Notes: generated by a model from the letters alone, not told the origin. DNA of 41,775 nt from a virus (IMGVR_UViG_2675903658_000008:1-41775), one strand, 5' to 3'; numbered from the stretch's first letter, positions 7,462 through 17,706 are shown. A program made the numbers and translations.

Positions 7462-7596
7462 TTATTTCATTGCGCATAACGCCTCCAGTTGTTTCTTTGC
7501 TGCTCTGATTAATTGTTTAACTCGGCGTGATAATTCAGATTCGAGCGGGTAGAAAGCGGACATGACGCCGCTACCCGCGAGCTGAAAGTGCATCAT
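7462..7596 (-). CDS. CIII-like small protein (putative FtsH inhibitor)
   Basis: 44 aa from ATG with AAGGAG RBS; amphipathic PLESELSRRVKQLIRAAKKQL resembles lambda CIII core (recalled); the longer listed ORF spans a terminator. Confidence 0.5.
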   Translation of the reverse strand: MMHFQLAGSGVMSAFYPLESELSRRVKQLIRAAKKQLEALCAMK

Positions 7597-7660
7597 GGGT
7601 AACTCCTTATATTTGATTGCATAACGAAAACGCCTCTCGTGAAGCGTTATTGGTATGCAT

Positions 7661-7686
7661 ATAAAAAAGCCCTCACACTGGAGGGC
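7661..7686 (-). terminator. Rho-independent terminator upstream of cIII-like gene
   Basis: GCCCTC-CAGTGT-GAGGGC hairpin followed by TTTTTTAT on the minus strand. Confidence 0.55.
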
Positions 7687-7820
7687 AAAGAAGATTTCCA
7701 ATAATCAGAACAAGTCGGCTCCTGTTTAGTTACGAGCGACATTGCTCCGTGTATTCACTCGTTGGAATGAATACACAGTGCAGTGTTTATTCTGTTGTTA
7801 GTGCCAAAAATAAAGGCCGG

Positions 7821-8444
7821 CTATGCGGCCTCGGAAGGAAGTCCAATCATCTTATTCAAATCTTCTACCCGTAAAGCAGGAAGTGCTGTACTTGCTTTAT
7901 CTGCTTCTTTTGGTAGCAATTCTTTGCTTTCAGGCCAAACTTCAATAAGTCGCTTAACTGTTGTTACTGAGTTCAAAGCAGCCCATACATTTGATTCGAT
8001 ATCCTTTTTCAAGGCTTCAAGGTTTTGTTGCAATGCGCAGATTTCATCAAACCTTTTTGTTATTTCGTGTTCTGCGTCAAACATGCATTTATCTTTGGTT
8101 GGAGTAGGGAGCAATATATCTTCGCCGTTGCCGTCTTTCCCATATGAATGCCATCCAACCCTTCTGCCAGATACAGTCAGATAAATTGAAGTAGAAAGAA
8201 CATCGTATGAGTAAAATGAACATCCCATCTTTTCAAGTTCTTCACTTATAGCTACCAACTTGGATGATAACTGATCCACTTCCTCAGTTTTCTTTTTACC
8301 GCCAAACGCAATAACTCTGGCGTCAAGTGCAAGCTGGTTCTTTAACTTTGTTACTTCTTCAAGTTCAGTGAAAACCCCAGACTTAATTAAAGCGTTACGA
8401 GCGATTTCCTCTTTCATTCTCGTAGTTAAGCGGATTGATGACAT
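7821..8444 (-). CDS. Hypothetical protein (207 aa), pL-operon accessory gene
   Basis: AT-rich ORF; start at MSSIRL with GAGAGGAA RBS; no recognisable motif. Confidence 0.6.
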   Translation of the reverse strand: MSSIRLTTRMKEEIARNALIKSGVFTELEEVTKLKNQLALDARVIAFGGKKKTEEVDQLSSKLVAISEELEKMGCSFYSYDVLSTSIYLTVSGRRVGWHSYGKDGNGEDILLPTPTKDKCMFDAEHEITKRFDEICALQQNLEALKKDIESNVWAALNSVTTVKRLIEVWPESKELLPKEADKASTALPALRVEDLNKMIGLPSEAA

Positions 8445-8455
8445 ATTAATTCCTC

Positions 8456-8566
8456 TCAAATAAGTGGTTTGCTGCCTAATTTCATTTTCTGGCGACCAAC
8501 ACAAGTCACACCCATTTCACTGCGTGGCTTGCGGTAGTAAAGATTGTGCCTGTCTTTTAACCACAT
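8456..8566 (-). pseudogene. Remnant of a lambda-type N antiterminator (C-terminal fragment)
   Basis: Open frame encodes ...YYRKPRSEMGVTCVGRQKMKLGSKPLI, resembling recalled lambda N C-terminus; no credible RBS or N-terminal ARM. Confidence 0.4.
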
Positions 8567-8627: not shown

Positions 8628-8990
8628 TTATTTTGTCATGGGGATATCTCCTTCAGTTCTGACCATTCGCCTTAATACTTTCCTTAAGTCGATGTAAAGT
8701 TGAAGGTCTCCATTTGCTTCGGCATCAGCCATTTTTTGCCTGACAAGCAGTAATGTTTCATACGGCTCAATAAGAATATCGTCATGAGTAATTAGGTGAA
8801 GCGTTGCCGCATCAACTATTCCTAGAGCTGCGCCAAGTATCAAAAATTCCCTGCTATTTTTGTCGCATGAGGAGATAAGCGTATTTAGCGCATACCTAAT
8901 ATTCTTTATAGCTGTTGTTAATGCTGCAATTTCTTCGATGGTGTCTTCTTCAATGAGCTTTTTAAGCTCATATTTTTCTTCCTGACCCAT
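8628..8990 (-). CDS. Hypothetical protein (120 aa), immediately downstream of N
   Basis: ATG at 8990 two nt after N stop with GAGG RBS; AT-rich; no recognisable motif. Confidence 0.55.
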   Translation of the reverse strand: MGQEEKYELKKLIEEDTIEEIAALTTAIKNIRYALNTLISSCDKNSREFLILGAALGIVDAATLHLITHDDILIEPYETLLLVRQKMADAEANGDLQLYIDLRKVLRRMVRTEGDIPMTK

Positions 8991-8992
8991 AA

Positions 8993-9301
8993 TTACCTCG
9001 CCGTCAATTGTTTTGATTTCCGGTAGCCTGCTGCGTAAATGGCTACGTTTGGCAGGCAAATACTTCCACTGCATTCGTCGGTATTTTGGTTACGAATGTT
9101 GCCGAGTGATATTGCTTTTTCAGAAAGGCTTAAACGCTTTCTCGTGCCTTTCTGAACAGGTTCCTCACTGTCTGTGCCGAAGATAGAATCAATGATGTTA
9201 CAGATAGCATCACGCTCGATGGCCAGCTTTCTGCGCCGCTCATGACGGCGAGTTTTGGCATTTCCTGCAAATGTTGATTTTCCGTACACGATTACCGTCA
9301 T
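8993..9301 (-). CDS. N-type antitermination protein, P22 gene 24-like
   Basis: Arg-rich motif AKTRRHERRRKLAIER near N-terminus; overall resemblance to recalled P22 gp24; GAGGA RBS; downstream of pL/nutL. Confidence 0.8.
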   Translation of the reverse strand: MTVIVYGKSTFAGNAKTRRHERRRKLAIERDAICNIIDSIFGTDSEEPVQKGTRKRLSLSEKAISLGNIRNQNTDECSGSICLPNVAIYAAGYRKSKQLTAR

Positions 9302-9492: not shown

Positions 9493-9563
9493 ATGTGTTT
9501 AGTATCACCGCTAGTGGTATTTGTGTCAACACCGCCAGAGATAATTTATCACCGCAGATGGTT
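9493..9563 (-). promoter_or_regulatory. pL promoter with OL1-OL2-OL3 operators
   Basis: Three 17-bp lambda-type operators (TATCACCGCTAGTGGTA, CAACACCGCCAGAGATA, TATCACCGCAGATGGTT); minus-strand TTGACA and GATACT hexamers. Confidence 0.8.
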
Positions 9564-9710: not shown

Positions 9711-9741
9711 AGGCAAAGAAAACCCGGCACTGAGGCCGGGT
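9711..9741 (-). terminator. Rho-independent terminator after the rex-position cassette
   Basis: AACCCGGC-CTCAGT-GCCGGGTT hairpin followed by TTCTTTG on the minus strand, just past the 9748 stop. Confidence 0.5.
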
Positions 9742-9747
9742 TGTGTG

Positions 9748-10119
9748 TTACTTAAGAACGAGTCCGTTTAAGGCATCAAGGATTTTGGAAACATAACTTC
9801 CAAAAATGTAGGCGCAAAATGCGAACACGAAACTGACAACGACCGCAGATGCCTTAATGGTGGTTTTTGCTGAGCTAATGCTTGTCTCAATACCTGACAG
9901 ACGAGAATCAACAGATTTTATATCTGACTTTACCTCAGCGAGATCGCGCTTGATGTATTCAACATCAGACTCTAGCTTTGCAACTCTAGCCTCAAGCATG
10001 TTACCTCCGCCGTTTCCTCCACCATGCCGAGAGTATGCATCATCAGTGGAATAGTGTCCAATTGGGCGAGATATGTTTTGATTTGGACGAAGCTGAGCAA
10101 CCTTGTTATCTAAACTCAT
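9748..10119 (-). CDS. Coiled-coil protein with C-terminal transmembrane anchor (candidate membrane effector, rexB position)
   Basis: ATG overlaps upstream gene stop; Gly-rich N-terminus, heptad-like coiled coil, hydrophobic ASAVVVSFVFAFCAYIFGSYV near C-terminus; internal GGAGG before Met41. Confidence 0.6.
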   Translation of the reverse strand: MSLDNKVAQLRPNQNISRPIGHYSTDDAYSRHGGGNGGGNMLEARVAKLESDVEYIKRDLAEVKSDIKSVDSRLSGIETSISSAKTTIKASAVVVSFVFAFCAYIFGSYVSKILDALNGLVLK

Positions 10120-10543
10120 CGCGAACTGATCCTGTTATCTTCACGTCAAAAAACGAACTTTTTACATCAATTACTTCGCCTTTCTCAGGATTAACCAGTG
10201 ATGCTCTAACTTCGAATATCCCAGGCTTGATAATTTTCACCCTTGGGAAGTTAATTCTCATAGAAGTTGATACGATGGTTTCTCCATCGTTGGCTTCTGC
10301 TACCGTAAAAAACTTATGGTTGGAGTACAGTTTTGTGTCAATTGGTATCGGTATTTCTTGAGCATTGAAAACCTCAATGCCTATGGAATATTTTTTTGTA
10401 GCCTTAAGGCCGATAAAAAAAGCGCCAAATGACAGATCCACTTCATGGGAGTCTTTATCCATTTCATAGATAAGAACTGGAGTTACGGGGTTGCCTTCAT
10501 CCATCGCAATCGGAATGATATAAGAAATACGTTCTTTAATCAT
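10106..10543 (-). CDS. Hypothetical soluble protein (145 aa), rexA position directly after cI
   Basis: Starts 7 nt after cI stop; AT-rich; no recognisable catalytic motif. Confidence 0.65.
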   Translation of the reverse strand: MIKERISYIIPIAMDEGNPVTPVLIYEMDKDSHEVDLSFGAFFIGLKATKKYSIGIEVFNAQEIPIPIDTKLYSNHKFFTVAEANDGETIVSTSMRINFPRVKIIKPGIFEVRASLVNPEKGEVIDVKSSFFDVKITGSVRDEFR

Positions 10544-17210: not shown

Positions 17211-17423
17211 ATGAGTGATTACCTGAAATGGTATCTCTGCCACCGCTGGTTAATTAAGTTTGCTGTAAAAGACTGGATGACAGCGGATGCCAACAAGCTT
17301 AAGCAAAGAAAGGACTATTACTACGCCAGAATGAAGGAAAACTACTGCTCAATTCGCACTCGCATATTTATTAAAAAAGACCTTCAGTCAATTCTTCAAT
17401 TGCGAGGGAAGGTAAATGGCTAA
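17211..17423 (+). CDS. Hypothetical protein (70 aa)
   Basis: ORF between ninF fragment and downstream nin genes. Confidence 0.4.
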   Translation: MSDYLKWYLCHRWLIKFAVKDWMTADANKLKQRKDYYYARMKENYCSIRTRIFIKKDLQSILQLRGKVNG

Positions 17424-17706
17424 CCTACGCAAAGAAGCGCGCGGCAGAGAATGCCAGGTACGTATTTACGGCGTATGCAATGGTAATCCTGAAACTACAG
17501 TTCTGGCACATTACCGGATGGCTGGAATTTGCGGAACGGGAATGAAGCCTGACGACCTGATCGGCGCATGGGCTTGTAGCGCGTGTCACGATGAAATCGA
17601 CCGACGCACCCATAATCTCGACAACAAAGACGCCAGACTTTACCACCTCGAAGGCGTGATCAGGACGCAGGCGATACTGCTGAAGGAGGGAAAGATTAAG
17701 CCATGA
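17416..17706 (+). CDS. DUF1364-like Cys/His-rich nin-region protein
   Basis: 96 aa with conserved C/H pattern recalled from lambdoid nin regions. Confidence 0.5.
   Translation: MANLRKEARGRECQVRIYGVCNGNPETTVLAHYRMAGICGTGMKPDDLIGAWACSACHDEIDRRTHNLDNKDARLYHLEGVIRTQAILLKEGKIKP

Follow-up and report, generated by a model that had tools for sequence, protein, structure and literature searches.

An intact Nmad5-family gene between N and cIII in a P22-like, lambda-immunity prophage, and the fit of its "nucleotide modification" label

What does the accessory gene carried between the antiterminator gene N and cIII of a lambdoid prophage do for its phage? The pL accessory genes of lambda and P22 are small, dispensable, mosaic cargo that deals with host defences or host nucleases, and the lambda slot between N and cIII holds sieB. 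The window examined here, a 41,775-nucleotide stretch of viral DNA (IMGVR_UViG_2675903658_000008:1-41775), carries in this slot an open reading frame (ORF) that an initial annotation, made from the sequence alone, had presented as an uncharacterised protein in the place of ral or sieB that could not be matched to any family. The prophage combines P22-like structural genes with a lambda-like cI, and its closest counterpart, at 99.9% identity over the window, is a prophage in E. coli FHI_NMBU_03 (NZ_CP019455). In the alignment to this RefSeq record, host DNA occupies the window's left end (approximately positions 1 to 2400), where it encodes an MFS transporter and a DUF4942 fragment; torI, an excisionase-like gene, lies next to the host DNA at the left prophage edge. 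A tRNA-Thr gene is located at ∼17400 to 17530, just downstream of the Q antiterminator gene.

The ORF at 7821 to 8444 on the minus strand is a real, maintained gene and not a chance ORF, because its product matches a Pfam family over the full length, 79 of 81 close copies are intact, and the median pairwise dN/dS among the close copies is 0.30. Translation from the ATG at 8444 yields 207 aa, and the ORF listing also includes an in-frame upstream TTG at 8504 that would yield 227 aa. The coordinates, the AT-rich composition (GC 0.399 and GC3 0.337, against a GC of 0.474 for the whole window) and the good ribosome-binding site (GAGAGGAA, 8450 to 8457, minus strand, with a GAGG core 7 nt 5' of the ATG by inspection of the sequence) are all as originally described. 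The family assignment is not: the protein belongs squarely to the Nmad5 family (PF18757; 237.4 bits, E = 2.2e-70, cut-off of 27 bits), with residues 4 to 203 covering profile positions 1 to 206 of 206, and to phrog_1965 (E = 1.3e-82 against the PHROG profiles), a family of unknown function. The HMM search proposed in the initial annotation thus overturns the family-less reading, and RefSeq already names the same gene in FHI_NMBU_03 (BXO92_RS02045/WP_049084739.1) "Nmad5 family putative nucleotide modification protein." The description of the protein as uncharacterised does hold; no biochemical activity or functional study of Nmad5 was found in the literature searched by Pfam and PHROG identifiers, protein accessions and phage names. 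The protein had no matches in PADLOC at E ≤ 1, in NCBIfam, or among PDB sequences (phmmer and profile searches). It is, in short, an ordinary-looking member of a named, functionally uncharacterised family with an existing RefSeq annotation.

The placement of the gene in the pL operon is borne out by its surroundings, where the order of elements is promoter, N, ORF120, Nmad5, terminators, cIII, kil, a Rad52-like annealase gene and an SSB gene. A pL-like sigma-70 promoter (TTGACA, 17-nt spacer, GATACT; 9529..9501, minus strand) was recognised by a consensus scan and by its position relative to cI and N. The first gene in the operon is N (8993 to 9301, minus strand, 102 aa), which is intact, as judged from the Pfam N_peptide match (positions 1 to 100 of 100, E = 1e-39) and the RefSeq CDS, and its C terminus agrees with those of other N proteins. 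Between N and Nmad5, and predicted to be co-transcribed with them, lies ORF120 (8628 to 8990, minus strand, 120 aa), identified from the ORF listing, PHROG (phrog_7374) and RefSeq. ORF120 is AT-rich (GC 0.39), has no match in Pfam, PADLOC or NCBIfam, and is missing from most related prophages, in which N abuts Nmad5. The spacer that separates ORF120 from the Nmad5 gene measures 183 bp; a search of it for N-like sequence found none, and the sole N-like sequence is the intact N gene, so that the "N-gene remnant" first reported upstream of Nmad5 was an error. No promoter-like site was detected in this spacer by the consensus scan.

A terminator-like hairpin followed by a T-run (7832..7813, minus strand, stem of -10.7 kcal/mol) overlaps the Nmad5 stop codon; it was found by the terminator scan in 78 of 81 related loci and is conserved also in an Stx2a phage. 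Two more terminator-like hairpins, at 7686..7669 and 7648..7629 on the same strand, were found by the scan between Nmad5 and cIII (7462 to 7596, minus strand; Pfam cIII, E = 3.5e-28; RefSeq CDS), which marks the downstream edge of the accessory slot; a terminator ahead of a cIII-like gene had been correctly noted at the outset. Across the interval from the pL-like promoter to the hairpin at 7832..7813, the scan returned no minus-strand terminator-like sites. This hairpin is the first such site downstream of pL, and Nmad5 is therefore predicted to be immediate-early. By contrast with lambda ral, it would thus be encoded ahead of any pL terminator. We infer, from the promoter and terminator consensus scans, that N, ORF120 and Nmad5 would form the immediate-early pL transcript. 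Farther along, the operon includes the genes for the Rad52-like annealase, SSB and the anti-RecBCD protein Abc2.

Several other features of this region were observed. Three terminator-like elements are packed into ∼200 nt before cIII (7629 to 7832); a long, near-perfect hairpin with a stem of ∼12 to 14 bp lies at 7749 to 7776, between the Nmad5 terminator and the next one; and the 191-nt spacer ahead of cIII folds far better than its shuffled versions (z = -4.8). Elsewhere, two ORFs (9748 to 10543, minus strand) are located directly downstream of the lambda-like cI, in the position of lambda rexA and rexB, and are followed by a terminator at 9742..9721. One of these encodes a 145-aa protein that belongs to phrog_5893 and is otherwise unmatched (10106 to 10543), and the other encodes a 123-aa protein of phrog_6136 (9748 to 10119), with a coiled coil (weak XhlA/FlaC-like matches) and a C-terminal hydrophobic segment. 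The two are candidates for a prophage-expressed exclusion module in place of Rex.

The comparison of the slot across related prophages, which the initial annotation had also proposed, included 80 IMG/VR prophages with an Nmad5 copy at least 94% identical to that in the window. N is directly upstream of Nmad5 in 46 of the 80 prophages, and Ral or Nun is encoded between the two in 8 and 6 loci, respectively. On the other side, cIII follows directly in 21 loci; elsewhere, variable cargo is followed by cIII and kil. Among this cargo are a phrog_1376 protein of 340 aa, a DUF2528 protein resembling Ea10, phrog_1636 and phrog_1273, and a Rad52-like or ERF annealase comes after cIII and kil. PADLOC and NCBIfam yielded no matches for the other cargo of the slot. 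The region between N and cIII is thus a variable accessory slot, as initially suggested, that holds Ral, Nun, the Ea10-like protein and other cargo. The gene is not, however, supported as a substitute for ral: Ral and Nmad5 coexist in the same operon in the 8 loci mentioned above, and the Nmad5 protein is unmatched by the Ral profile in the Pfam search (PF11058; Ral is ∼66 aa). More generally, the ral, sieB, ea10 and abc2/gam genes of lambda and P22 occupy the same operon and slot, and Ral, Ea10-like and Abc2 genes adjoin Nmad5 in related prophages, whereas Nmad5 lacks sequence or profile similarity to any of their products. An anti-restriction or counter-defence role for Nmad5 is plausible. 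A DNA-mimic anti-restriction mechanism of the Ocr/ArdA type was considered and dropped on account of the charge of the protein (pI 5.4, with 33 acidic and 29 basic residues) and the lack of a structural match.

Homology among these prophages starts just 64 to 160 bp upstream of the Nmad5 ATG, and the junctions with the neighbouring genes differ from prophage to prophage. Given these boundaries and the conservation of the stop-codon terminator in 78 of the 81 loci, the mobile unit is therefore the gene plus its terminator. A promoter belonging to the cassette itself was rejected, since the spacer contains no promoter-like site and the shared upstream sequence is so short. The gene was found in 211 of 5426 complete E. 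coli genomes (∼4%), at 93 to 99.8% identity, as well as in phages mEp235 (97.6% identical to the window gene) and HK542 and in Stx1a phages. It is almost certain that the window protein is an intact, selectively maintained Nmad5 member whose gene, together with its terminator, forms a cassette in the N-cIII slot of this P22-like prophage with lambda immunity.

Some copies are altered. In Stx2a-converting phages (Stx2_356; L178, 1330 to 2070), the first ∼34 codons, including the conserved N-terminal helix, are swapped for unrelated sequence, and the remainder, together with the terminator, is still ∼97% identical. In E. coli O121 strains (H78 to H80), insertion of an IS3-family element has broken the gene in two. 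The 340-aa phrog_1376 protein, which is absent from the window, is the product of the gene right after Nmad5 in 10 close prophages (for example, L032:8744-9766 and L131:6807-7832) and is encoded at most 4 genes after it in 3 distant lineages; it has no match in Pfam, PADLOC or NCBIfam and could be a recurrent partner of Nmad5.

The predicted fold resembles no solved structure. The model (pLDDT 85 with 22 sequences; pLDDT 92 and pTM 0.83 with 58 sequences) is that of a soluble alpha/beta protein without a transmembrane or hydrophobic segment, consisting of three helices (residues 8 to 72), a beta hairpin with short strands (86 to 122) and a long helix (127 to 158), followed by a small helical unit (163 to 176), a variable linker (∼181 to 190) and a short helix (194 to 200). 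The structure-based search, likewise among the checks proposed at the outset, returned nothing from the PDB at E < 0.1 with Foldseek, and no similarity of the model to transferase, kinase or glycosylase folds was found. Against BFVD, the top 15 matches were Nmad5 or unnamed phage proteins of ∼200 aa; among the top 8, seven had a TMq of 0.54 to 0.75 and the eighth had 0.49.

Conservation measured over 58 diverse Nmad5 members peaks at residues 161 to 178 (TT.KKLLE.WPEA.ELLP) and 188 to 203 (LPA...LN..IGLP). The family motifs, namely, the R43...G48-G49 loop, G93, T162-x-K-(K/R)-L...W170-P-E, P178 and L196-N197...G201-L-P, are all present in the window protein. The best-conserved block comprises codons 162 to 172 (T-V-K-R-L-I-E-V-W-P-E; 7929 to 7961, minus strand), with the R165 codon at 7950 to 7952, and the conserved C-terminal motif, which follows the variable linker and includes the invariant N197, comprises codons 188 to 203 (LPALRVEDLNKMIGLP; 7836 to 7883, minus strand). 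The polar residues conserved in at least 80% of the members are R5, R43, T162, E172, E175 and N197; the other positions at this level are Gly, Pro, Trp or aliphatic, and none is Cys, His, Ser or Asp. The absence of such motifs, in a fold unmatched in the PDB, hints at a binding module more than at any known type of enzyme. A semi-conserved A-D-H motif at 124 to 126, which is A-E-H in the window protein, could form, with the R/T/E/N set, an unrecognised active or ligand site. Residues 183 to 207 are highly conserved, although their pLDDT was below 50 in the 22-sequence model; in the 58-sequence model, residues 194 to 200 are a helix with a pLDDT of 74 to 79, and in that model this segment probably packs on the protein body. 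The N-K-M-I-G-L-P stretch loosely resembles QLVLGL, the clamp-binding motif of Pol IV; the possibility of a beta-clamp-binding tail is weakened, not disproved, by the helical folding of residues 194 to 200 in the deeper model.

Beyond the lambdoid prophages, the Nmad5 profile retrieved 2,291 representative clusters (50% identity) at E ≤ 1e-3, nearly all of which are stand-alone proteins of ∼200 aa. Neighbourhoods were counted with a crude ORF caller in 80 diverse IMG/VR loci, a sample of 27 lineages at 80% identity that is biased to proteobacterial prophages; in 11 of the 27 lineages (34 loci), Nmad5 is found in the order phrog_6784 (300 aa), DUF2800 PD-(D/E)XK nuclease, Enc34-type SSB, Nmad5, PolA, or, in a variant, just upstream of the DUF2800-SSB-PolA block. 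The block (L089 to L168, e.g., L133:3164-9435 and L142) is often followed by small genes, including an HNH/resolvase-like phrog_93. Like the window protein, the Nmad5 of this module is a stand-alone protein of ∼200 aa and a full-length homologue, with identities of 33 to 43% measured against the search representative P0100; it is embedded in a phage replication module, whereas in the window phage replication is O/P-like, of the lambda type, and the gene is part of the pL operon. The neighbours of Nmad5 in the remaining lineages include lambda P, N, S24 repressors, ERF, YqaJ, AAA_24, VapE, SNF2, a DnaG-type primase and DinI. Among individual phages, the homologue is located in the nin region of SPN3UB, after helicase/primase in eiAU, and in the replication block of the N4-like phage Pollock, where it follows thymidylate synthase; in Dhillonvirus and vB_VchM-138, it is an opposite-strand island in the head and tail modules, respectively. 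Dhillonvirus, Pollock and eiAU are virulent. A narrow-pattern scan of genome contigs for the range of Nmad5 added 7 loci (Xenorhabdus and Limnobaculum). The common thread of these contexts is early replication/recombination operons and moron-like islands, not modification pathways. Separately, a gene for a ParB-like protein (phrog_1033; weak TIGR00180 match) is found 1 to 3 genes after Nmad5 in three distant lineages, L125, L135 and L143. ParB-like domains go with some phage DNA-modification systems, and these lineages may be the ones in which a link between Nmad5 and modification is real.

The Nmad names reportedly originate with Iyer et al. in 2013, and the family name rests on an association with base-modification genes. 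Such an association does exist in Pseudomonas phage M6, where the Nmad5 gene, gp56, is flanked by those for aGPT-Pplase1 and a thymidylate-synthase-like protein. The same arrangement has been reported for SN1_019 of phage SN1. The steps from 5-hmdU in DNA to 5-NedU in M6 have been assigned to gp54, gp51, gp53 and gp52, and gp56 is unmentioned in the paper on this pathway (PMC8989533); furthermore, hypermodification clusters usually adjoin a polymerase gene (PMC5889632). The M6 and SN1 proteins are of the same family as the window protein (∼30% identical over the C-terminal 87 residues) and share its early or replication-region location; they are encoded inside a hypermodification cluster, whereas the window prophage has none of the genes of those clusters. 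Specifically, tblastn with seven modification enzymes from M6 and Pollock (E ≤ 1e-3) identified no homologues of thymidylate synthase/hydroxymethylase, aGPT-Pplase 1 or 2, 5-hmdU kinase, PLP or rSAM enzymes in the window or in ∼167 related loci, and the sole modification-type enzyme annotated in the window prophage is a Dam-like methyltransferase in the nin region. The association behind the name is thus not seen in the window; family membership, which is a matter of homology and not of context, stands. The evidence, drawn from sequence comparison, speaks against applying the "nucleotide modification" label to this gene in its lambdoid context. The "NMAD" domain in a defence system validated by DefensePredictor was examined as a possible Nmad5 and dropped, this domain being Nmad2.

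Genetics within the family is confined to the Dhillonvirus homologue. Two independent Dhillonvirus mutants that escape the Tmn defence carry the nmad5 substitutions K216E (SM_A8) and K296E (SM_S22); reverting the nmad5 mutation restores sensitivity to Tmn, and the mutation alone suffices for escape (Yamashita et al. 2025; PMC11846954). Deletion of nmad5 is viable and confers no escape, the gene could not be cloned and is apparently toxic, and the authors' reading is that Tmn senses a DNA modification (PMC11846954). Because the K-to-E substitutions allow escape and the deletion does not, the mutations point to an interaction that is altered and a function that is changed, not abolished. In SM_A8 (PP920553), the block reads T-D-K-K-L-I-K-A-W-P-E; its second Lys, K216, aligns with R165 in T-V-K-R-L-I-E-V-W-P-E of the window protein. 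This alignment points to a charge reversal on the best-conserved Nmad5 surface that behaves as a change of function. The Dhillonvirus protein belongs to the same Pfam family, is ∼33% identical to the window protein over residues 103 to 203 (the C-terminal half) and shares the TxK(K/R)LxxxWPE and LNxxxGxP motifs. It differs in size, with 254 aa in SM_A8 and 334 aa in SM_S22 against 207 aa in the window and a large insertion in the beta region, as well as in setting, its gene lying among the head genes of a virulent siphovirus, in the opposite orientation, and not in a pL operon.

Taken together, these observations are best explained, with a probability that we place at about 0.4, by Nmad5 being a non-catalytic, dispensable, immediate-early binder that shields early phage DNA metabolism, i.e., a counter-defence or host-takeover accessory. 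Nmad5 would be transcribed from pL and made along with N in the immediate-early transcript, before antitermination. Rather than modifying bases, the soluble alpha/beta protein would act by binding, through a surface formed by the conserved C-terminal T-x-K-(K/R)-L-x-x-x-W-P-E/L-N-x-x-I-G-L-P region; it would contact a conserved part of the DNA replication or recombination apparatus, of the host or the phage, or an immune component, and so keep host interference away from early phage DNA metabolism. The same C-terminal surface would be the site at which charge reversal frees Dhillonvirus from Tmn, a KAP-type NTPase defence.

Each part of this proposal has its own support. Nmad5 is regarded as accessory and dispensable because of its patchy presence in E. 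coli (211 of 5426 genomes), variable junctions, truncated and IS-disrupted copies, opposite-strand islands and the viable Dhillonvirus deletion. The link to replication and recombination comes from the DUF2800-SSB-Nmad5-PolA order in 11 of 27 lineages, the other neighbours, the N4-like and eiAU replication blocks and the operon shared in the window, and the link to defence or a host target comes from the toxicity of Dhillonvirus nmad5, the K216E and K296E escapes and the alignment of the Lys with R165. Binding is preferred to catalysis because there is no conserved Cys, His, Ser or Asp nucleophile and no relative in the PDB by fold or sequence, and a modification enzyme is disfavoured here because partners are lacking in the window and the ∼167 loci and the 5-NedU steps in M6 are assigned to four other proteins. 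Against the proposal, the Tmn data concern a 254-aa paralogue that is ∼30% identical over its C-terminal half and resides in a different genomic setting.

Much of the same evidence can be read differently. Nmad5 might be purely a replication/recombination helper that serves the phage SSB, annealase, exonuclease or polymerase as a mediator or adaptor, for example by loading or coupling these proteins; it would then have no role in immune evasion, and the Tmn effect would be indirect, via altered replication intermediates. The conserved order with DUF2800 nuclease, SSB and PolA, neighbours rich in replication and recombination functions, homologues inside the N4-like and eiAU replication blocks and an operon shared with Rad52-like, SSB and Abc2 genes are what such a helper would leave behind. 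It is nevertheless an unlikely explanation: the gene is dispensable and patchy, in some phages it is found in head or tail modules, well away from the replication genes, and its Dhillonvirus version is toxic when cloned alone; moreover, Nmad5 co-occurs with unrelated replication systems (lambda O/P, PolA and N4-type) and with either Rad52 or ERF annealases, and therefore has no constant single phage partner.

That Nmad5 is a true nucleotide- or DNA-modification factor, acting alone or with host enzymes or the Dam-like methyltransferase of the prophage, appears improbable. The lack of partner enzymes in the window and ∼167 loci, the silence on gp56 in the account of a pathway whose steps from 5-hmdU to 5-NedU are assigned to four other proteins, the dissimilarity to transferase, kinase and glycosylase folds and the unchanged Tmn sensitivity of the nmad5 deletion all count against a factor of this kind, even though the family was named for its association with modification genes, the Tmn authors favour the sensing of a modification, and suggestive neighbours are on record: aGPT-Pplase1 and the thymidylate-synthase-like gene in M6 and SN1, thymidylate synthase in Pollock and the ParB-like gene in three lineages. 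The adjacency of the clusters themselves to polymerase genes means that the association may just reflect the replication module. A role in superinfection exclusion or defence, with a sieB- or rex-like protein expressed by the lysogen and blocking other phages, had been raised by the initial annotation and is very unlikely: PADLOC gave no match, the model is soluble and free of transmembrane segments, the cassette has no conserved promoter of its own (the 64 to 160 bp of shared upstream sequence contain no promoter-like site), and homologues occur in virulent phages, which form no lysogens. What speaks for it is that lambda has sieB in the same slot, that the cassette is moron-like in having its own terminator, and that, in 3 distant lineages, Nmad5 is preceded by a gene for an S24 repressor-like protein in the same orientation.

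The preferred reading, that of a shielding binder, can be extended to the family as a whole, although this generalisation is doubtful. Nmad5 would then be a widespread (∼2,300 clusters) family of immediate-early proteins, not modification factors, that dock a replication/repair component or an immune sensor and thereby shield replication from host immunity, with contact made through the TxK(K/R)LxxxWPE/LNxxIGLP surface and charge changes retargeting the protein, as in the case of Tmn.

What is new here is the corrected anatomy of the locus, the misfit of the label, the recurring association with a replication module and the correspondence of the Tmn-escape residue with R165. As a family, Nmad5 is a sizeable "known unknown," with ∼2,300 clusters and a presence in ∼4% of complete E. 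coli genomes, including those with Stx1 and Stx2 phages. The database name implies base modification, and yet lambdoid phages, like many other temperate ones, carry the gene in early replication/recombination operons with no modification enzyme nearby; should the name mislead, an incorrect clue to function is being propagated by automated annotation. The location of the Tmn-escape residue on the best-conserved block offers a cheap mutational handle (R165E) on a family with genetics in a single phage genus.
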